A DNA stretch of 64,000 bases, taken from the IMG/VR virus record IMGVR_UViG_3300043470_002422. One strand, given 5' to 3'. This DNA comes from a virus (taxonomy: Duplodnaviria; Heunggongvirae; Uroviricota; Caudoviricetes). A program made the translations under genes and the position numbers. Below are positions 5,787 to 62,180 of this stretch, piece after piece (positions within the stretch are counted from its first letter, which is position 1; the number at the start of each line of letters is the position of its first letter). The notes below the pieces were generated by a model, which did no database searches, was not told the DNA's origin, and saw nothing but the letters and a program-made list of their open reading frames with translations.

Positions 5787-6587
5787 ATGAAGCACATCCT
5801 AGCCTTTCCCCTATTTGAATCCGTGTCCTTGACTCCAGACCAGAAAGTCTTTCTGGAAATGTGTATGGAGAACACCAATCTCAATTCCAAGTTTGTCCAA
5901 GACCCTGCAACAGGCAAGGTGACAACTCTGGGCAAATTCGATGCCCAGTACTATTACGAATCAAGACCAAACTCCGATAAGCAGAAGATCAGGGATCTGT
6001 TTAACTCCATTCCCTTTGGAGTAGCAGAAGGGAACTTCTCAGTCAGAGGGATGTACTTGGACGCTATGGTCAATTTCCCATCTTCAGTAGAAGGAACTTT
6101 GTCCCTCAGCAGGAACTCCCTGCTAACCTTGGAGGGAATACCTAAGATGATCTATAAGGATTTGAGTCTTGAAGACAATCACCTCATCTCTCTAGAAGGC
6201 ATGGAAGAGACAGAAGTTAGAGGAACCATCTGGTTTGCAGACAACTGGATCAGAGGTCTCTGGTTGAGAGAAGATCTGACCAGAGCCAAAGCCATTGGCA
6301 CTTGGGTTCCAATCTATCTGGACATCCTCTCAGGAGAGACCTCGTTCAGTGGGATTCCAAATCCCAACGAGCAGGAAGAGGCAAAGGCATTCATCATGGA
6401 GAAGAAGACGACAAAGGCTCAGATGGAAGAAGCCATCAGGGTGGCACCAGCAGAGATGACTGTGGCTCTCAGCAGAAAGCGGACTATGCCTCAGGAGATG
6501 CAAGATCTACTTCCGACACTGAATGTTCCTGAAGGATTCTGGGATGCTCCTGATCTCATGGGGGATCTGGAGGGAGTAGGACTGTAG
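5787..6587 (+). CDS. CTS-like-leader family protein with LRR-like 22-aa repeats and a C-terminal DLEGVGL
   Basis: Real start is ATG 5787 (MKHILAFPLFES); the ORF-track start at 5679 is an alternative upstream start. Internal repeats of the form N-x-L-x-x-L-E-G-x-P. Ends GDLEGVGL. Confidence 0.6.
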   Translation: MKHILAFPLFESVSLTPDQKVFLEMCMENTNLNSKFVQDPATGKVTTLGKFDAQYYYESRPNSDKQKIRDLFNSIPFGVAEGNFSVRGMYLDAMVNFPSSVEGTLSLSRNSLLTLEGIPKMIYKDLSLEDNHLISLEGMEETEVRGTIWFADNWIRGLWLREDLTRAKAIGTWVPIYLDILSGETSFSGIPNPNEQEEAKAFIMEKKTTKAQMEEAIRVAPAEMTVALSRKRTMPQEMQDLLPTLNVPEGFWDAPDLMGDLEGVGL

Positions 6588-15813: not shown

Positions 15814-18800
15814 ATGGCTCAAAAGTATTTGAGCAAAGCTTTGGCTTTCGCTTTAACCTTGTTTGCAACACAAGGAAATCTTCATGCAGCATGCGGGAAT
15901 CTCACACCGAGTTTCAGTAATGCATCCAACAAAACCTGTGGTATACCTCAGGTAATTACACTTACCAATACTTCCACTGGAAACAGTCGAAATGTAGCCA
16001 CCTACAAGTGGTATGTGGGTACCACACTGCTGAGCACACAAGTTGGCAAATCCACCCAAAAATACACCATCAACACTGCAGGTAGCTATACCTTCAAGTT
16101 GGTGGCGATAGATACGGGTAAGGTGGGCTGTAAAGACAGCACAAGCACTACCATTACCATTTCGGCATCTGTTCCGAGAATTTTGGATGGCAATAGAGTA
16201 AATACCTATTCTCCCATTTGGGAAAATTGTATAAGTTCATTGGGGGTTCCTGACACCTTTGGTATAAATATCAAACCTCAGGATTCATTGCGAAATTACA
16301 CCATAGTTTGGGGGGATGGCACCGGTAATTCTACTGGCACTTTACTGCTTAGCAGCCAATCCCTCTACCATAAGTATAATTCACTAGGACAATTTACTTT
16401 ATTAATCATCGGAACAAAGGGAAGTTGCACTGATACCCTTCGAGGTGTGGTGTCGAATGAAAGAAATCCTGTGGCTGGAATTGTGGGTCCACCAACAGGA
16501 ACCAATGCAGGTTGTGTGCCCATTCGCATGCGTTTTATCAATAACTCTTCCTTAAGCTCACCTAGCACCACTTTTACCTGGGATTTTGGCAATGGCGAAA
16601 CCATAGTAAGGGGATTCAATACCCACAAAGACACTTTATTTTATACCTATAAGCGCTTTTTGTGTAATGGCATCGTGAAACTTACTCAAACCAATAATTG
16701 TGGTTCGAGTTTTGCCACCTGGAACCCAATCATGGCTTCCTCTAAGGATACTGCCATTATTGCGCCGACCAATCCGACCAACTGCGATCTTGCTGTACCT
16801 TTTACGTTTAACAATACCTCTCAAAATCGTTTTTGTAGCACGCCAAACAATAAGAAATACCTCTGGGTTTGGGGCGACGGAACCAATTCTGGTTGGAGTA
16901 CTTCTTCTGCTTCGCAGTCTAAAACCTACAGCAAGCGCGGTGTGTACCAGGTCTTGCTGATTGATTCAAATGGCTGCGGTAAAGATACTGCAAGGTATAC
17001 CTTGCGTATCGATAGCATGCCTACCATTTCTGCAGGCCCAGCGTCGGCTGCAGGATGCTCACCTTTGGTGGTAAACTTCAGAGACAACAGCATAAATGCA
17101 ACTTCTAGAAATTGGGATTTTGGATATGCAACACCAACAAGCAGTGCGCAAAACCCAACCCATACCTATCAAACAGGTGGTACATATAGAGCAGTGCTGA
17201 CAGTAGCCAACAATTGTGGATCATTAAAAGATACTGTCCTTATTACTGTCAAACAAAAAGTAAAGGCAAACTTCAATACACCGCTTACTGGCTGTGCTCC
17301 ATTAACACAGAAATGGACCAATACATCTGTCAAAGGATTGGCAGGAACCCCTACATATTTCTGGGATTTTGGGGACGGAACAACTTCTACCCAGGTGAAT
17401 CCTCCAGATAAAACTTACTCTACGTTAGGGACATATACCATTACACTCATTGCTACAGACTCATGCGGTAAGGATACCATTAAAAAGACGTTTACCGTCC
17501 GTGGTAAGCCCTCTGCTACAATTACTTTGTTATCTTCAAGCCGGTGTGTGGGCAGCACTTTAGATATTCGCTTTGTAACCTCACCCGTAAATACAGCTTC
17601 AGTTATCTGGGGTGATGGAACCAATGGCAGCAGTTATTTCGGATTGGGTGGTTCAGTTGACCGCACGGTTTCCAGAAAATACGACAGTCTGCGCACCTAC
17701 AGATTTGGGGTAGTTATGGTGGATCCAAGCGGTTGCCGAGACACCAATTACCTAAACATTGCAATGGATCCAAGGCCTACGATGAACTATACCTACACCA
17801 CAACCAATGGTTGTGGTCCTTTGGATGTTACATTTACCAATACCAGTGCGCACAATGGAGGGGGTAACATCAACCAAATGAAGTTCTTATGGAACTTTAG
17901 TAATGGTATATTGGCTTACAGCAAAGATACTGCAGCTAGGTTCTTGCCGTTTAAAACAAGAGACTCTATTTATCCCGTTAAATTAATTGGAACAAACGCC
18001 TTTGGCTGCAGAGATTCCATTACCAAAACGGTTCGAGTTTATCCAAAACCATTGAGTAAATTTAGTATTAGTGAAAAGGATGGTTGTGCACCTTTGGATA
18101 TTACTACTACGAACAATTCTACTCCATATGACACGGGTTCTATAAACATAATGAAGTTTATATGGGACTTTGGCAACGGCAGGAAAGCGTTTGGTAAAGA
18201 TACTGCTGCTCGATTCTTAGCCAGTAAAACAAAAGATACTGTGTATACTGTTAGTCTGATATCTATTTCTGAACATGGTTGCCGAGATACCAGTTCAACC
18301 ACAGTGCGTATTTATCCAAAACCTAAAGCCTTATTTACCAGAAGTAAAACTGAAGGTTGCAAACCACTCGGGGTTACCTATGTCAACCAAAGTGTACCCT
18401 ACGATACCGGCAATATATCAATAATGAGTTTTGCTTGGGATTTAGGAAATAGAATTACCTCATTCGCTACAGAACCTGTGGGTATCTATAATGATGCGAT
18501 AAACAAAGATACTACTTATAAGGTACGTTTGATTGCCACTAGTGAGCACGGATGCAAGGATACTGCAAATTCCACTGTACTGTTACATCCGAATCCGGTG
18601 ATTAAATTTGATATGAGCCGCACCAATGGCTGCGGTCCATTGCCTGTGAGCTTCTCGAACAAGAGCATCAACGGCGATGCATTTACTTGGGAGTTTGGCG
18701 TATATGGAACTGATACCGCAAAGAGTCCTAGTAAGGTATTCTATGGCCGCGATATTTTTGACTCAGTAGTAGTGGTGAAGCTTAGCGCGATGAGCAAATT

Positions 18801-32211: not shown

Positions 32212-32943
32212 ATGTTTAAATTTTATGAAGTTGGAGGAAAAATAAGAGACGAAATTTTAGAATTATCTTCTAAAGATGTTGATTATGTAGCAGTTCCGAA
32301 AGAAGAATTACTAGATACAGTTGAGAAGGCAGAAGATATGTTCAGCATGTTAGAATCTTTTCTAAGAGTAGAAAAATTTGAGATCTTCTTGGTAACCCCA
32401 GACTGTTTTACAATTAGAGCAAAATTCCCAGCAGGACACAAATACTCAGGGGTTGCAGACTTTGTAATGGCCAGAAAGGAAATTGGTTATATTCCAGGAA
32501 CTAGAACCCCAATTGTTAAGCCGGGAACCCTATTTGACGATCTTCAGAGAAGAGATTTTACCCTAAACGCTTTAGCAAAAGACGAGGACGGAACCATAAT
32601 CGATTTCTTTGGAGGAATAGAGGATCTAAAGAAAAACCGTTTAAAAACTCCACTAGACTGCAAAATAACTTTTGATGACGATCCGCTTAGAATTCTTAGG
32701 GCCATCAGATTTTGTATAACTAAAGGGTTTTGGATTGGACCCTATATGGACGGGGTAATTCAGGATTACGACTACGAAGGAAAAATGGGGGTAGTTTCTA
32801 TGGAGAGAATAAGAGAAGAATTGTTCAAATGTTTCAAACACGATACATTAAAAACCCTCAAAACACTTCACGAATACCCAGCCCTAAGAAACTACATTTT
32901 TGAAAAAAATACACTTTGGTTAAAACCCACAATGGAGCAATAA
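32212..32943 (+). CDS. tRNA nucleotidyltransferase / poly(A) polymerase family head domain (CCA-adding enzyme-like, lacks a C-terminal HD)
   Basis: FYEVGGKIRDEILELSSKDVDYV and RRDFTLNALA are class II nucleotidyltransferase head motifs. Confidence 0.6.
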   Translation: MFKFYEVGGKIRDEILELSSKDVDYVAVPKEELLDTVEKAEDMFSMLESFLRVEKFEIFLVTPDCFTIRAKFPAGHKYSGVADFVMARKEIGYIPGTRTPIVKPGTLFDDLQRRDFTLNALAKDEDGTIIDFFGGIEDLKKNRLKTPLDCKITFDDDPLRILRAIRFCITKGFWIGPYMDGVIQDYDYEGKMGVVSMERIREELFKCFKHDTLKTLKTLHEYPALRNYIFEKNTLWLKPTMEQ

Positions 32944-32948
32944 AATAT

Positions 32949-33635
32949 ATGATTTACGTATCAATAGACATCGAAACTACAGGACTAAATCCTGAAACTT
33001 GCCAAATCCTTTCTATAGGAGCAGTTATAGAGGACACTCAAAAACAATTGGCTTTCGAGGAAATTCCGAAATTCCATTGCGCAATACTGAAAAATGAAAG
33101 GGATATAATCTCCGGTGAGATTTATGCTTTGAATATGAATAGGGATTTGATAGAAAGCATCACCTACTATTCTACAGCTAAAGATCAAGATGAAAAGAAT
33201 GATCTAGTTCATTTTACAGGAATGCAGTTTGTTAGAGAAGAAGATATTGCAGAACATTTTTTCCAATTCCTTTATCGGAACGGATTCAAGCCAAACGAGT
33301 CTGATCTACCCCTGAATAAAAAAATTAAAATAATAAATGGAATATCTTATCCTGTTTTGGATTCTTCTGTAAAGCCAATCACCATAAATGTAGCTGGGAA
33401 AAATTTCTCTGGATTTGATAGAAAATTTCTAGATTTACTTCCTAGATGGAAGCAACTAATCAGAACAAGAAGTAGAGTTATAGATCCAGGTGTATTGTTT
33501 GTAGACTGGGAAAATGATGACGCAGTTCCTTCTTTAGATTCCTGCAAAAAAAGAGCACTAATAGAAGGAGTGGTTACCCATAATGCTTTAGAGGATGCTT
33601 GGGATGTTATTCAAGTCTTAAGAACAAAATACTAA
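32949..33635 (+). CDS. DEDD-family 3'-5' exonuclease (DnaQ/RNase T-like)
   Basis: Exo I motif SIDIETTGL and Exo III motif HNALEDAWD. ATG 32949 is the likely start. Confidence 0.6.
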   Translation: MIYVSIDIETTGLNPETCQILSIGAVIEDTQKQLAFEEIPKFHCAILKNERDIISGEIYALNMNRDLIESITYYSTAKDQDEKNDLVHFTGMQFVREEDIAEHFFQFLYRNGFKPNESDLPLNKKIKIINGISYPVLDSSVKPITINVAGKNFSGFDRKFLDLLPRWKQLIRTRSRVIDPGVLFVDWENDDAVPSLDSCKKRALIEGVVTHNALEDAWDVIQVLRTKY

Positions 33636-34219
33636 TGAAAATAATCTATTTAGACATAGACGGAGTTCTTAATTGTGAAAAAGCATACCGAGATGGATTT
33701 TGCAAATATCAAGAATGGCCAGATACCAAAAGGGAGGATGGTAAAAATTACCACCAGACTTTTTATCCCCCGGCTAAGGACCTTCTAAATAAGCTTATTC
33801 TAGAAACAGGTGCTAAGGTTGTTGTCTCTTCTACCTGGAGACATTCGGGTTTAGAATTTATTAAAAACGTTTGGACTCAAGAGAAAATGGAAGGAGAAAT
33901 CATAGGGATAACCCCTTCCTTTAGAGGAGACATTGAAGGGTATACAATTCCTAGAGGATGTGAGATTGAATATCACCTTGAAAAAGAATTAGGATTTCAT
34001 CACATCAATTGGGACAAAGACACTCAGCAAGAATATATTGACAAATCTAACGTCGATAATTACATTATCATAGACGACGATTCAGATATGTTGTACACGC
34101 AAAGAAATCATTTTGTTCATGTCTTACCTTCTCCTAGGAACAAAGAGGGATTTAACGAAAAATATTTTGAAGAAGCACTAAAAAAATTATCAAAAACAGT
34201 TATAGATTTGAACTACTGA
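33635..34219 (+). CDS. HAD-superfamily phosphatase
   Basis: Motif I YLDIDGVLN, then VVSSTWR and IIIDDDSDM. The TAATG start and stop overlap. Confidence 0.5.
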   Translation: MKIIYLDIDGVLNCEKAYRDGFCKYQEWPDTKREDGKNYHQTFYPPAKDLLNKLILETGAKVVVSSTWRHSGLEFIKNVWTQEKMEGEIIGITPSFRGDIEGYTIPRGCEIEYHLEKELGFHHINWDKDTQQEYIDKSNVDNYIIIDDDSDMLYTQRNHFVHVLPSPRNKEGFNEKYFEEALKKLSKTVIDLNY

Positions 34220-34233
34220 CCGTATATTTAAAT
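34218..34233 (+). promoter_or_regulatory. Class A motif GACCGTATATTTAAAT 15 nt upstream of the tRNA-like gene
   Basis: The same element that precedes protein-coding genes here precedes an RNA gene. Confidence 0.5.
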
Positions 34234-34248
34234 GTAACAAAAACAAAT

Positions 34249-34332
34249 GCTCTGAGAAATTAATTTGACATTGGTAGTCAAGCCAGCTTCTAAACCTGGT
34301 TTTTAGGGGTTCGATACCTCTTCAGAGCACCA
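34249..34332 (+). tRNA. tRNA-like gene with a CUA (amber-reading) anticodon, encoded 3'-CCA and a non-canonical extended acceptor-to-D linker
   Basis: Perfect 7-bp acceptor stem GCUCUGA/UCAGAGC. T-arm AGGGG-UUCGAUA-CCUCU. Anticodon arm CCAGC-UUCUAAA-CCUGG, so the anticodon is CUA. Discriminator A then CCA. There are 9 nt where 2 nt are expected between the acceptor and D stems. Confidence 0.5.
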
Positions 34333-34373
34333 AAGATGAAACTTTTAAAACAAAAAGATATATAATAAACAAT

Positions 34374-34736
34374 ATGAAATAGATTAACAAATTTCAAGAA
34401 ACAAAACTGGTAACTATTACCAGATCCGATATCCATCCAGGATATCAAATTCCTCAAACTGCTCACTCTATCGCAGATTTTGCATACGAGCATCCGGAAG
34501 CATTTAAAGAATGGAAAGAGACATCAAACTCTGTCATCTGCTTATCCGTACCATCAGAGGAAAAACTACTCGACCTTTATTCAAAATTATCAGGACAAAC
34601 TCCGACGACCAAGTTCTTCGAGCCTGACATCAACCAATGGACTTCTATCTGTTTATACGGAAGCCCCGAGGTTAGGAAAAAACTTTCACATTTACCATTA
34701 GCACTTAAAAAAATCGAAGACTATGTTATAGATTAA
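34374..34736 (+). CDS. pth2: peptidyl-tRNA hydrolase PTH2 with an in-frame TAG at codon 3 (needs amber suppression or a non-canonical start)
   Basis: ATG-AAA-TAG, then an open frame to TAA 34736. The translation KLVTITRSDIHPGYQIPQTAHSIADF...PEAFKEW...ICLSVPSEEKLLDLYSKL aligns with human PTRH2 [26 protein letters not shown]...PEMLKQW...VVVKAPDEETLIALLAHA. There is no ATG, GTG or TTG after the TAG. Confidence 0.5.
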
Positions 34737-34755
34737 TAACAAGAAAGAACTACTT

Positions 34756-35307
34756 GTGGCCATGAAATCTTGTCCACAAACAGAAACCCAATCTGTTCTA
34801 GATCACGGATTTTCTGTTAAGAATTACCTATTCGATCTTCTGGATCATTTAGAAAAAGGAACCCCTTTGAAGTTCGAATGGAAACTTCCAGAATGGATCT
34901 ACGAGGAGAAAGAATTTATTCTTAAGACCTTACCCTCAAGACAAACTTTAAAGATATACACGGTGTTTCACGACTGTGGTAAGCCTCAGTGTTTAACCAT
35001 CGACGAGGAGGGCAAAAGACACTTCCCTAATCACGCAGAGGCTTCGTACAATACTTTCATCAATCTCTTTGATGATAATGCAGCAGCGGACTTAATACGC
35101 AGAGATATGGACATTCATTTACTTAAGTCCGAAGGTGTATCTGACTTCTGTAAAAATCCCAATGCAATAGCATCTTTAATTACTGGACTTGCAGAGATTC
35201 ACTCTAACGCTGAAATGTTTGGAGGGATCGAGAGCACTAGCTTTAAGATTAAGTGGAAGTGCATCTCCAAGAGAGGAAAACAAATTATTCAAACCATAAA
35301 AAAATAA
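34756..35307 (+). CDS. HD-domain protein (CCA-enzyme-type HD phosphohydrolase-like)
   Basis: VLDHGFSV...FHDCGKP...FPNHAE. Confidence 0.5.
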   Translation: MAMKSCPQTETQSVLDHGFSVKNYLFDLLDHLEKGTPLKFEWKLPEWIYEEKEFILKTLPSRQTLKIYTVFHDCGKPQCLTIDEEGKRHFPNHAEASYNTFINLFDDNAAADLIRRDMDIHLLKSEGVSDFCKNPNAIASLITGLAEIHSNAEMFGGIESTSFKIKWKCISKRGKQIIQTIKK

Positions 35308-52464: not shown

Positions 52465-52499
52465 GAAACTTATCTTTCTTTTCCTGGTATAAATCAAAT

Positions 52500-53255
52500 A
52501 TGATCAAAGATTCAGACATAGTTTTTGTTACCCCTTCTTTATCCACTAAATGGATAAATTATCAACAGAGTATATTAAAATCAAATTTTCCTGAAAGTTC
52601 CTTCATTGTCGTCGACGGAAGAGGGGGATGGCCAAAGTCCTGGTTTCTTTGGATAAATGAGGTTAAGAAAACAAATCAAAAATGGTATATCCATATCGAT
52701 GAAGATTGCTTCATCGAAAATAAATCTGAAGTAATTAAACTCCTTGAAAAAATGGAAATGGAAGATATTGGGATTTCTGCTATTTCTGAAGCATATTGTC
52801 ATTTCAGAGGAAACAATCCAGTAGCTTTCAACTCTTTCTTTTTGGCTGGTAGGGTTGAAGATTTGCAGCATGTCAATTTAGATATTAAAAATATCGATTT
52901 CAAATACGATGGACAAAATTGGAAGAATTCTTTAGGAATTCATTTTAAGAAAGAATATTTGGATGATTTCATATATCCTCACGATAAAATCTGGCCTCAT
53001 GATAATATAGAATCTGAATGCGAACCTTTTTATCTTTTCTGCTGGCTGATGAAGGAGAACAAAATAAAAATTCATTATCTTTACCCTTACTTTGATTCCA
53101 GATTTAAGTCAACCAATCCAAGGATTGAGAAAGATTCTCCTGACATAGCAATTCACATGTGGTACACTAGATTGTGCGACAGTCCTATGGACGTACACGG
53201 TCTTCCTAATAATGAAAGATATCGTAGATTGGAAGATTACCTTAATTCTAAATAA
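52500..53255 (+). CDS. hypothetical protein at the start of the glycosylation cluster
   Basis: ORF only. Confidence 0.45.
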   Translation: MIKDSDIVFVTPSLSTKWINYQQSILKSNFPESSFIVVDGRGGWPKSWFLWINEVKKTNQKWYIHIDEDCFIENKSEVIKLLEKMEMEDIGISAISEAYCHFRGNNPVAFNSFFLAGRVEDLQHVNLDIKNIDFKYDGQNWKNSLGIHFKKEYLDDFIYPHDKIWPHDNIESECEPFYLFCWLMKENKIKIHYLYPYFDSRFKSTNPRIEKDSPDIAIHMWYTRLCDSPMDVHGLPNNERYRRLEDYLNSK

Positions 53256-60620: not shown

Positions 60621-61436
60621 ATGAAGAAAAAAATAGCATTGGTGACAATGGCAAAAGATGAAGACTTGTATATTCAAGAGTGGATCGATTATCATTTGAA
60701 ATTAGGATTTGATAGTATATTCATCTATCAAAACAATTGGAGATTTAATAGTGAAGACTTGGATGAAAGAGTTCATCTTTTAGAGTGGGATATAGATTCC
60801 CCAGGTGATATGGATAACACCCCATGGTTATCAAATAGAATTGCTATGGCTTACACTCATTTTGGAAAAACATATCACGATCAATTTGAATGGGCTGCTT
60901 TTATTGATGTCGACGGGTTTCTGGTATTGAAGCAAACGAACGATGTCAAAGAGTTTATTGCTAAATTTGACAACGTTCCCCAAAGACAAGTTGTAATCAA
61001 TCTAGCACAATTTGGTGATAATGGTCATACCGAGTTTGATCCGAACAACGCAAGTGTATTGGAAAGATTTACTAAAAGATGGGGTAAACCTTATACTCAC
61101 ACCTACTATCATGTTGGACCAATATGCAAATTACACGAAAACTTTGATAAGCATGGGGTTCATATGGTACACGATGAAGAATGGATTGATGTAGATGGTG
61201 TAGTAGGCATAGGTACTTCAACTATTTTGAATTGCTCAAGAAAGGTATCATACGATACAGCACAACTAAACCACTATTATACAAAGACTCTACCAGAATG
61301 GCTTAATAAATGTAATAGAACTCGTCCAGAGGGTGATCAGTATAGGAGTACGATTGAAGGTTTTTTTGAACACAACCACAACGATGTAGAAGACTTTCAT
61401 GCTTTAAACTTTTTTAGAAATCAACAAACTTTGTAG
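60621..61436 (+). CDS. GT-A-fold glycosyltransferase (GT92/DUF23-like)
   Basis: VTMAKDEDLYIQEWIDYHLKLGFDSIFIYQNN and FIDVDGF. Confidence 0.45.
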   Translation: MKKKIALVTMAKDEDLYIQEWIDYHLKLGFDSIFIYQNNWRFNSEDLDERVHLLEWDIDSPGDMDNTPWLSNRIAMAYTHFGKTYHDQFEWAAFIDVDGFLVLKQTNDVKEFIAKFDNVPQRQVVINLAQFGDNGHTEFDPNNASVLERFTKRWGKPYTHTYYHVGPICKLHENFDKHGVHMVHDEEWIDVDGVVGIGTSTILNCSRKVSYDTAQLNHYYTKTLPEWLNKCNRTRPEGDQYRSTIEGFFEHNHNDVEDFHALNFFRNQQTL

Positions 61437-61439
61437 ATT

Positions 61440-62180
61440 ATGGATATTATAAATACAAATTTGAATGTGCAAAAGATTAGTGATCCGTATGATATATGGA
61501 TTATTGATAATTTTTTAAAAGAACATACTTTGAAAGGTATTAAAGATGCATGGCCATCTTATGAAAATGATGCTTGGTATGTTGGACACCCTGAAATAGA
61601 CGGTAAAAAGAATATATTAGAACAGGGTATGCTAGGAATTAGTAAAGTAGGGGAAATGCCTGAATTCATTAGCAATGTTATGAGTTATATCCACACAAAA
61701 GAGTTTACAGAAAGGATATCTAACCTTTTAAATTTACAAAACCTATTTCCAGATGAGCATATGAGATGGTCAGGTATGAGAACAATGCTTCCAAATTCAT
61801 TCCAATTGATTCATAGTGATGCTAGAAAATCACCTAATTCAGGAATGCGTAAAGAGGTAACTTGTTTATTGTATCTGAATGAGAACTATAATAAAGAAAA
61901 TGATGGCGGTTGTTTAGAAGTCTGGTCCGATGATATGTCAACTTGTATGCATGAAATTGAACCTATCTCAAATAGGTTTGTTGCTTTTTTAAACAGCGAT
62001 ACTTCCTACCATGGTGTACCAACTGTAAAATCAGAAAGAAAGTTAATTACATTCTCTATTTTAGCAAATGATAGTTCTACCGATCGATATAAAGCTCTAT
62101 TCGTTGCAAGACCTACCGATTCTGTTGAAGTTGGAATCGAAGGTGTTAAAAGGTCACAAATAAAAGATATTAAAAAATAA
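61440..62180 (+). CDS. 2-oxoglutarate/Fe(II)-dependent oxygenase (prolyl-4-hydroxylase-like)
   Basis: HSD...YHGV facial triad spacing. Confidence 0.5.
   Translation: MDIINTNLNVQKISDPYDIWIIDNFLKEHTLKGIKDAWPSYENDAWYVGHPEIDGKKNILEQGMLGISKVGEMPEFISNVMSYIHTKEFTERISNLLNLQNLFPDEHMRWSGMRTMLPNSFQLIHSDARKSPNSGMRKEVTCLLYLNENYNKENDGGCLEVWSDDMSTCMHEIEPISNRFVAFLNSDTSYHGVPTVKSERKLITFSILANDSSTDRYKALFVARPTDSVEVGIEGVKRSQIKDIKK

Follow-up and report, generated by a model that had tools for sequence, protein, structure and literature searches.

Conserved tRNA(CUA) genes of unusual shape accompany PTH2 and HD-like genes with an early in-frame UAG codon in huge phages

Phage suppressor tRNAs, 8/4 tRNAs (with an acceptor stem of 8 bp and a T stem of 4 bp), and in-frame stop codons that lie near the start of a gene and serve as regulators are each of a kind already known. 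Here we describe a locus at which all three appear to meet. It lies in a stretch of 64,000 nucleotides (nt), referred to below as the window, from a tailed virus of the class Caudoviricetes (IMG/VR record IMGVR_UViG_3300043470_002422). On the + strand of the window, a tRNA-like gene with the anticodon CUA, or tRNA(CUA), is followed by a gene for a PTH2-like peptidyl-tRNA hydrolase that carries the amber codon UAG at its third position, and then by a gene for an HD-like phosphohydrolase with an early UAG of its own. In a literature search, neither a phage PTH2 gene interrupted by TAG nor a tRNA of this architecture was found described, nor was a linkage between the two. The features of the locus are as follows.

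34218-34226, + strand: GACCGTATA upstream motif (class A motif); it starts 31 nt upstream of the tRNA 5' end and ends 23 nt before it
34249-34332, + strand: non-canonical tRNA gene of the amber-suppressor type (predicted decoding), recognized by sequence, minimum-free-energy cloverleaf and covariance models
34249-34256 with 34321-34328, + strand: acceptor stem of the tRNA, 8 bp
34257-34264, + strand: connector of the tRNA, AAAUUAAU, 8 nt
34265-34281, + strand: D arm
34283-34286 with 34296-34299, + strand: anticodon stem
34287 and 34295, + strand: C.C mismatch (31:39, the closing pair of the anticodon loop)
34288-34294, + strand: anticodon loop UUCUAAA, with the anticodon CUA at 34290-34292
34300-34305, + strand: variable region
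34306-34309 with 34317-34320, + strand: T stem, 4 bp
34310-34316, + strand: T loop
34329, + strand: discriminator A, followed by an encoded CCA at 34330-34332
34338-34366, + strand: second promoter-like motif ahead of PTH2, GAAAC-N16-TATATAAT, of putative function
34374-34736, + strand: PTH2-like gene with UAG at codon 3 and the stop TAA, assigned by Pfam PF01981, ortholog and PDB profile matches
34374-34385, + strand: start module ATG-AAA-TAG-ATT of this gene, with UAG at 34380-34382 and the Ile codon at 34383-34385
34723-35307, + strand: HD-like phosphohydrolase gene with the start ATG-TTA-TAG-ATT, its UAG at 34729-34731, assigned by motif and ortholog starts

The start module ATG-AAA-TAG-ATT begins 41 nt after the tRNA, as given in a preliminary description of this DNA, and 117 sense codons (not 118, as counted there) follow the TAG. 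None of these codons is an in-frame ATG, GTG or TTG, which agrees with the earlier observation. Because no canonical start follows the TAG, PTH2 is absent from the output of the program that listed open reading frames (ORFs). The proposed PTH2 identity held up. The window translation scored 24 bits against the Pfam PTH2 model (PF01981; cut-off 23), 21 of 22 orthologs matched PTH2 (best E 2.8e-8), and the family profile matched Pth2 chains in the PDB, namely 2zv3 (E 5.5e-7, full length), 24bt, 1rzw and 1wn2; taken alone, the window translation gave a weak match to archaeal and human Pth2 structures. In the ortholog alignment, H28, E80-P81-D82 and T87 are invariant and Q25 is nearly so. E80, or the EPD triplet, is aligned opposite or near the DAG motif, with a placement that differs between structure templates.

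Orthologs of PTH2 were taken from a phage collection, IMG/VR and JGI metagenomes. The nearest public relatives of the window at the protein level are uncultured huge phages of 462-735 kb (LR756502, LR745206, LR756504, LR756500 and LR756501), and Al-Shayeb et al. (2020) described those above 634 kb as "Mahaphage" genomes, with predicted Bacteroidetes hosts and an annotation under code 11 (PMC7162821). The orthologs are 37-75% identical to the window PTH2, and the alignment begins at the Ile that follows the TAG. At all 58 orthologous loci with a visible start, the gene opens with ATG, zero to two sense codons, TAG and ATT (ATA in phage pT24), and most orthologs have no canonical start for 20-100 codons past the TAG. 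In other ATG...TAG mini-frames of the same DNA, examined as a control, AT follows in only 19%. In LR756501, TAG-ATT occurs in frame a second time, midway through the PTH2 domain. A distant PTH2 homolog in Prevotella phage Lak-B7 has an ordinary start.

The HD-like gene, whose UAG start the preliminary description had missed, begins within the last PTH2 codons in a different frame. In each of 21 distinct ortholog contexts its start reads ATG-(0-3 codons)-TAG-AT[T/C/A], and the residues encoded from the TAG to the first Met are conserved (INNKKELLVAM and INNKEELVIAM). In pT24, PTH2 and HD form a single ORF with one TAG start, and the deposited annotation (BPT24_235) starts at an internal Met. 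The HD assignment is a label of likeness, since the match to Pfam HD (PF01966) was below the cut-off (E 0.087, 13.6 bits against a threshold of 22); searches of the PDB and NCBIfam gave no match. An H..HD-type motif is visible in the window protein (VFHDCGKP...HFPNH), and the pT24 counterpart has MHDLGKP and HFPNH. Because all 58 PTH2 loci and all 21 HD contexts carry the UAG at codons 2-5, and both proteins are conserved from the next codon onward, the early UAG is, on comparative grounds, a selected feature and not a sign of decay. The same data favor the earlier proposal that PTH2 production would depend on reading the early TAG. At locus L054 (from position 1942 onward) and at L055, a duplicate of the first ~24 PTH2 codons, with ATG-AAT-TAG-ATT among them, is joined to a homing-endonuclease-like ORF that precedes an intact PTH2, which suggests that a mobile element was inserted there.

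The tRNA-like element at 34249-34332 had been noticed in the preliminary description, and its boundaries, its CUA anticodon and its encoded CCA stand; it also belongs to a covarying family. Its architecture had to be revised. The acceptor stem, described as a perfect 7 bp, has 8 bp; the T arm, described as canonical, has a stem of 4 bp and not 5; and the linker, given as 9 nt, is a connector of 8 nt. The 8/4 architecture had therefore been overlooked. ARAGORN reported 0 tRNAs in the whole window and Rfam gave no match to this tRNA at gathering thresholds, in both cases because its shape is non-canonical. Relaxed searches, which had been proposed earlier, were successful in part: relaxed ARAGORN returned the same boundaries with meaningless anticodon assignments, and a permissive search with Rfam RF00005 scored 16.9 bits against a threshold of 29, with only the D, anticodon and T arms aligned. 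The fold of the single sequence was of moderate significance only (z = -2.4 relative to shuffles). Covariance models of the family score the window tRNA at 81.6 and 86.9 bits.

This family was reached solely through the neighboring PTH2 protein. A DNA search of the phage collection found no nucleotide-level relative of the window, and an exact-pattern scan of IMG/VR with the anticodon and T arms of the window tRNA found no match. The starting clue was the presence of tRNA-like 3' ends upstream of PTH2 orthologs. A pattern search followed by a covariance model then located the family in the window and at 39 other loci, at 54-89 bits, and the use of 10-kb flanks added a member in the remaining IMG/VR lineage (L067). 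The family comprises 32 distinct sequences, including that of the window. Model R2, which has the 8/4 structure and was trained on 10 sequences, recovers 32 members, including an untrained subgroup at full boundaries.

Covariation supports the structure throughout. In a 33-sequence alignment, 97.7% of cells are paired compared with 60.4% in shuffles, none of 500 shuffles reached the observed value, and both sides change in 20 of the 21 pairs; in slid controls pairing drops to 34-44%. Pairs 1-7 of the acceptor stem and 1-4 of the anticodon stem are intact in practically every sequence, each in as many as five pair types. The 8:65 pair is present in all 32 sequences (GC in 14, GU in 12, AU in 4 and CG in 2), and 49:65, the expected first T-stem pair, is paired in only 4 and mismatched in 28. 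Since 65 pairs with 8 and not with 49, the acceptor-T branch is divided 8+4. The connector is 7-8 nt long and reads [A/U][A/G]N(N)UUAA[A/U], with an invariant UUAA; in the family alignment it shows no consistent complementarity to, or covariation with, the mRNA or the variable loop.

The remaining parts of the molecule are tRNA-like. The D stem mostly has 5-6 bp (3-4 bp were parsed in 11 of 31 members), the D loop mostly 5-7 nt (range 4-7), and the D-loop GG is invariant or nearly so. The T loop carries UUCRA; TTC..A, T33 (U33) and A37 are invariant. The anticodon loop is of 7 nt and reads YUCUAAM in every member, with an invariant CUA, and 31:39 is mismatched in 29 of the 32. The variable region is 5-6 nt long, 31 of the 32 members have A as the discriminator, and the encoded CCA is restricted to the window copy. 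ARAGORN does call three relatives (L041, L042 and L052) as CUA tRNAs. The family lacks the canonical combination of a 7-bp acceptor, a 5-bp T stem and a 2-nt connector; it has a four-helix cloverleaf with covariation and the universal tertiary nucleotides. Judged by its 32 sequences, their covariation, the kept tRNA nucleotides and the invariant CUA, this tRNA appears to be a functional RNA under selection.

In the window and at the 39 loci, PTH2 has the 8/4 tRNA(CUA) on its own strand at an upstream distance of 20 nt to ~3.5 kb, and in the L067 lineage the tRNA is upstream within this range as well. Three relatives have a canonical 7/5 tRNA(CUA). In pT24, a cultured Tenacibaculum phage, it lies 2.5 kb upstream of PTH2 and is annotated as "tRNA-Sup"; in LR756500 it lies 0.8 kb downstream of PTH2; and in LR756501 two such genes stand in tandem 2.1 kb downstream. 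A tRNA(CUA) is present in every TAG-start genome or locus in which tRNAs were found, in most cases no more than 3.5 kb away. The same TAG-start genes are found with tRNAs of two lineages that share one anticodon, and this co-occurrence strengthens the earlier suggestion that a suppressor tRNA may be functionally tied to the hydrolase. In Lak-B7, a suppressor-type tRNA(UUA) (L017 868-940) lies ~0.5 kb upstream of the PTH2 homolog with the ordinary start; the tRNA-PTH2 neighborhood therefore extends to TAG-recoded megaphages.

The complete genome of LR756502 (642,428 bp) has no tRNA(CUA) within 20 kb on either side of PTH2, and ARAGORN found 46 tRNAs in it, none with CUA. The 8/4 model detected exactly one family member there, at 54 bits near 609.7 kb, with the loop AUUCUAACC and a TATATTTG box upstream. 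Only two ORFs of at least 80 codons in this genome start with ATG-(0-3 codons)-TAG-ATH: PTH2 and a gene for 229 amino acids at ~610,587-611,291 on the minus strand (L087 29288-29992), which starts with ATG-AAA-AAC-AAT-TAG-ATT. The latter gene had no Pfam match. It directly follows a DNA methylase gene and is 0.8 kb from the only tRNA(CUA) of the genome.

Elsewhere, TAG serves as an ordinary stop in the window and its relatives, which bears out the earlier view that the genome as a whole is not recoded. The long ORFs of the window end with TAA in 47 cases, TGA in 9 and TAG in 5, TAG terminates the ORFs with ends at 6587, 9199, 20907 and 21324, and the PTH2/HD pair are the only window genes interrupted by an in-frame TAG. 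The two other TAG-joined frames on the + strand, at 2715 and 61434, are ordinary gene junctions. For the first, the preliminary description had considered a read-through fusion at the TAG at 2717; the fusion has no support, this TAG overlaps or directly precedes a copy of GACCGTATC that is the upstream motif of the next gene, and neither of the flanking ORFs has a Pfam match. At the second (61434-61442), the TAG stop of a GT2 glycosyltransferase gene (60621-61436) is followed by ATT ATG in frame with a 2OG-Fe(II) oxygenase gene (61440-62180), and UAG read-through would fuse the two proteins. In stretches of 40 kb, TAG-joined frames number only one or two in each of LR745206, LR756502 and LR756504 and are absent from pT24 and LR756501. 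In LR756502 as a whole, 100 of 538 long ORFs end with TAG and five long frames are TAG-joined, at least two of which (ATG within two codons of the TAG) resemble ordinary gene junctions.

The tRNA and PTH2 are preceded by different promoter-like motifs. The class A motif GACCGTATA, which had been reported upstream of the tRNA and is confirmed at 34218, is enriched across the window: with up to one mismatch it occurs 25 times (6.6 expected), 24 of these on the + strand, and many copies are 15-45 nt upstream of a gene start (sites include 1340, 2028, 4796, 12032, 13544, 20957, 27542, 29134, 31725, 34218 and 36284). It is probably a phage-specific promoter or regulatory box. A Bacteroidota-type TAnnTTTR box is present 16-30 nt before the tRNA at 17 of 31 related loci, and the window has TATATTTA at -26. 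The second motif, GAAAC...TATA[TA]A, recurs upstream of many PTH2 orthologs. With a spacer of N15-24 it has only two copies in the window, one ahead of PTH2 (34338-34366) and one ahead of the gene at 52500 (52465-52500). Both are 35-36 nt from the start of the gene, and the motif may represent a promoter class of its own.

At two loci, a short leader ORF of the form ATG-(X)-TAG-ATT...Pro-Pro-TAA lies just upstream of PTH2 (L001 2848-2975 in LR745206 and L002 2868-2985 in LR756502). Its last codons are in the 5' arm of a long, stable, terminator-like hairpin (z = -4.2 and -4.3) that is followed by a U-rich tract. The leader ORF and hairpin look like an attenuator that would sense UAG read-through, and such an arrangement would make PTH2 transcription, too, depend on reading UAG. 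In LR745206, a gene for a non-discriminating aspartyl-tRNA synthetase (NCBIfam, 474 bits; L001 1420-2784) is located directly upstream of the leader ORF and PTH2.

The + strand ORFs are densely packed across the window under the standard code, and encode, among others, NAPRTase, an SPFH/Band-7 protein, a ClpB-like ATPase, MTHFR and adenylosuccinate synthetase. Three genes stand immediately upstream of the tRNA.

32212-32943, + strand: head domain of a CCA-adding nucleotidyltransferase (Pfam PolyA_pol, 7.9e-16; NCBIfam CCA-enzyme models, ~95 bits)
32916-33635, + strand: RNase T-like 3'-5' exonuclease (RNase_T, 2.7e-8)
33599/33635-34219, + strand: HAD phosphatase of the "Swiss Army Knife" RNA-repair proteins (HAD_SAK_2, 8e-20)

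By their predicted functions, these genes, PTH2 and the HD-like gene are a block in which all members are concerned with tRNA 3' ends. In pT24, genes for Pnk and an RNA ligase are found 15 kb away.

We think it fairly probable that these elements form a dedicated switch, in which PTH2 and HD would be translated only when the phage amber suppressor reads the early UAG. The tRNA(CUA) would be transcribed from its own promoter-like motif, and ribosomes would initiate at the ATG of PTH2 and HD. If charged suppressor were absent, translation would stop after a di- to tetrapeptide; if it were present, an amino acid would be inserted at the UAG and the enzyme would be completed. The output of enzymes that recycle or repair tRNA ends would in this way be tied to suppressor activity. 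We infer the charging of the tRNA, its decoding of UAG, the direction and purpose of the coupling and the amino acid inserted. A feed-forward role as a timing device is plausible, in which stop suppression would generate more stalled or dropped-off peptidyl-tRNA and the hydrolase would be made in proportion; a feedback role, in which the PTH2 and HD enzymes would act on the suppressor tRNA itself, is plausible as well.

The switch is the best reading of the data. Its main supports are the co-occurrence of TAG starts and tRNA(CUA) genes, the internal UAG of LR756501 and the very small set of TAG-start genes, to which the leader ORFs and the neighboring genes for tRNA 3' ends may be added. With a TAG-ATT inside the domain of LR756501, the whole protein would be made only by read-through and not by re-initiation. 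Several observations, on the other hand, weigh against this reading. The codon after the UAG is always Ile (mostly ATT, rarely ATA or ATC). This is true of two unrelated proteins, of the leader ORFs and of the internal site, and an invariant Ile is not predicted by plain suppression. The odd shape of the tRNA, with its 8-nt connector, 31:39 mismatch and 4-bp T stem, could impair its use by EF-Tu or the ribosome. LR745206 and LR756504 have no tRNA(CUA) within 20 kb on either side of PTH2. TAG accounts for ~8% of long-ORF stops in the window and ~19% in LR756502, and an efficient suppressor would extend those proteins. Finally, ATH follows genuine TAG stops in 13.9% of cases, compared with 10.3% for TAA. 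A context rule, by which UAG-AUH would be avoided at real stops, is unsupported, as ATH is not depleted after genuine TAG.

A more elaborate version of the switch, which we consider unlikely, would make the system a homeostat. The 8/4 tRNA(CUA) would be a natural orthogonal tRNA with dedicated charging, possibly by a phage-encoded enzyme; PTH2 and HD would deacylate it or trim or repair its 3' end, and the UAG in their own genes would close the feedback loop. The loop would set the level of amber suppression in the infected cell, and the UAG-AUH context would mark programmed sites. If true, this would be a tRNA-level analogue of RF2 autoregulation and a new class of natural suppressor tRNA that could be used for genetic-code expansion. 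The main rival explanation, to which we also assign a low probability, is that ATG and TAG form a start-stop mini-ORF: ribosomes would terminate at the UAG, the same ribosome would restart on the adjacent AUU, AUA or AUC, and the tRNA(CUA) would serve another purpose. The invariable AUH after the TAG would be explained if it were a start codon, the TAG never lies further than 0-3 codons from an ATG in its frame, at some loci start and stop are directly adjacent (ATG TAG ATT), and the protein alignments begin exactly at the Ile. Moreover, very short ORFs favor peptidyl-tRNA drop-off, as with the lambda bar minigenes, and a start-stop ahead of a peptidyl-tRNA hydrolase gene could itself act as a sensor. 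However, AUU, AUA and AUC starts are rare and weak, and their variation fits an Ile or context requirement equally well; this explanation also leaves unaccounted for the accompanying CUA tRNAs of two structural lineages and the internal TAG-ATT of the LR756501 PTH2 domain.

That the tRNA-like gene yields a non-decoding RNA is less probable still. Toward the neighboring tRNA-end enzymes, or toward host defenses that target tRNAs, such an RNA could act as a decoy, as a mimic of a substrate or as a regulator, and the TAG genes would then be expressed through low-level read-through or re-initiation. Its non-canonical shape, including the 31:39 mismatch and an 8-nt connector whose invariant UUAA lacks a covarying partner, its location in a tRNA repair and maturation cluster, and the occurrence of other odd tRNA-like genes in the same phages fit this idea, but the invariant CUA, U33, A37 and 7-nt loop over 32 diverged sequences are what selection for UAG decoding predicts. 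In addition, 8/4 tRNAs can work in bacterial translation (PMC5389517), and in pT24, LR756500 and LR756501 an ordinary 7/5 tRNA(CUA) replaces the family beside the same TAG-start genes. We regard as similarly improbable, if anything slightly more so, an ordinary recoding of the type found in Lak and crAss-like phages, in which the suppressor would serve many TAG-containing (late) genes and PTH2 and HD would be merely two of them. The relatives do belong to a clade of Bacteroidetes-infecting huge phages that includes the TAG-recoded Lak phages (PMC7162821), Lak-B7 has its suppressor-type tRNA(UUA) 0.5 kb from the PTH2 homolog, and the view of the present genome is limited to 64 kb. Nevertheless, no window genes beyond PTH2 and HD are split, TAG-joined frames are few in the 40-kb stretches of relatives, the complete 642-kb LR756502 holds just two TAG-start long ORFs, and the programmed TAGs are at codons 2-5 and not scattered. 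A pseudogene or assembly error combined with a chance cloverleaf would be in keeping with the moderate single-sequence fold (z = -2.4) and with the negative results of standard tRNA finders; it is refuted by the same TAG in 58 loci of independent assemblies, the conserved downstream protein and the strong tRNA covariation, and we give it practically no credence. Three decoding mechanisms were rejected as well. Quadruplet or longer decoding by a 9-nt loop (UCUA with UAGA) is inconsistent with an ORF that stays in the zero frame; an initiator-type tRNA starting at the UAG is inconsistent with the G1-C72 pair, the lack of a run of three G-C pairs in the anticodon stem and the in-frame ATG that is always upstream; and frameshifting is inconsistent with pre-TAG codons that are not slippery and vary between loci.

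The proposed switch can be compared with several known systems. Known 8/4 tRNAs include allo-tRNAs and phage (8/4) tRNASer and tRNAHis; versions engineered to carry CUA act as amber suppressors in E. coli (Mukai et al., NAR 2017, PMC5389517). The present family shares with the 8/4 allo-tRNAs a 12-bp acceptor-T branch split 8+4 instead of 7+5, a longish D stem and an occurrence in phages. It differs from them in its variable region of 5-6 nt without a long V-arm, in having A73 and not the Ser identity G73, and in a D loop of mostly 5-7 nt in place of a tRNASec-like D stem with a tetraloop. Its 7-8-nt connector with the invariant UUAA also sets it apart (canonical tRNAs have 2 nt), and its CUA is natural, invariant and linked to specific TAG-start genes. 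Suppressor tRNAs are also found in stop-codon-recoded phages, i.e., Lak megaphages and crAss-like phages (PMC7162821, PMC10879173, PMC9523058). Features in common are phage tRNAs for UAG (a predicted decoding in our case), Bacteroidota hosts with the standard code, and read-through proposed as a means of regulation. In recoded phages, however, TAG has a sense meaning in many, mostly late, genes, whereas here TAG is a normal stop, the tRNA has a different shape, and two or three genes per genome carry a programmed UAG, always at codons 2-5 and followed by Ile.

Other parallels concern the genes. Like prfB, PTH2 is a translation-related gene with a conserved in-frame stop near its 5' end, and its expression would report on the handling of stops. 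The prfB gene, which encodes RF2, is autoregulated through an early in-frame UGA and a +1 frameshift, and needs no tRNA gene; in our case, translation would go on without a change of frame, and the locus includes a dedicated suppressor tRNA gene. The lambda bar minigenes, which are associated with peptidyl-tRNA drop-off in Pth-limited cells, are free-standing and toxic. They resemble the present starts in that ORFs of two to four codons are connected with peptidyl-tRNA hydrolase, but here the mini-frame is fused in frame to the hydrolase gene and is accompanied by a suppressor tRNA. The phage proteins share with PTH2/Bit1 (PF01981; PDB 2zv3, 1q7s, 1rzw) a collinear full-length domain in which the Q..H and the acidic-residue...T motifs appear to be kept. 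They form a distant phage clade in which the Asp of the DAG motif appears to be replaced by an invariant Glu (EPD), and the pT24 protein carries an HD domain in addition, by fusion. As with tRNAPyl, a non-canonical CUA tRNA is predicted to decode in-frame UAG in a few dedicated genes. Nevertheless, the family has none of the tRNAPyl hallmarks (a connector of 1 nt, a small D loop that lacks GG and an anticodon stem of 6 bp), and no pyl genes were seen. The label "tRNA-Pyl" given by ARAGORN reflects the CUA anticodon only.

These findings have several implications. As a conserved 8/4 tRNA was missed by ARAGORN and Rfam, the number of suppressor tRNAs in huge phages may be underestimated. Genes with an early UAG of this kind, such as PTH2, are left uncalled or are truncated like BPT24_235 of pT24. 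Amber suppression in a phage does not necessarily imply that the whole genome is recoded; its apparent role here is the control of two or three genes that handle tRNA ends. The arrangement points to a link between suppressor activity and the recycling or repair of tRNAs, which may play a part in a conflict with tRNA-attacking toxins of the host. Since Tenacibaculum phage pT24 and its host are a cultured pair with the same arrangement, the mechanism is directly testable, and a natural amber suppressor of this odd shape is a candidate orthogonal tRNA for genetic-code expansion.

Additional unusual tRNA-like genes were observed at these loci. They include L004 963-1046, L008 2386-2469, L045 3385-3469, L049 3642-3712 and L051 443-527. 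One family of such genes, which ends with GTCAGGTGGCG...CCTGACT and has irregular anticodon arms, is located between tRNA(CUA) and PTH2. In pT24 (L061), two genes of 80 nt annotated "tRNA-Undet" (17905-17984 and 18272-18351) have an anticodon arm extended by a hairpin. The largest genomes have clusters of long tRNA-Lys genes (82-89 nt) beside genes of normal size (L062 25133-25398, L064 37465-37553 and LR756502 373661-373930).

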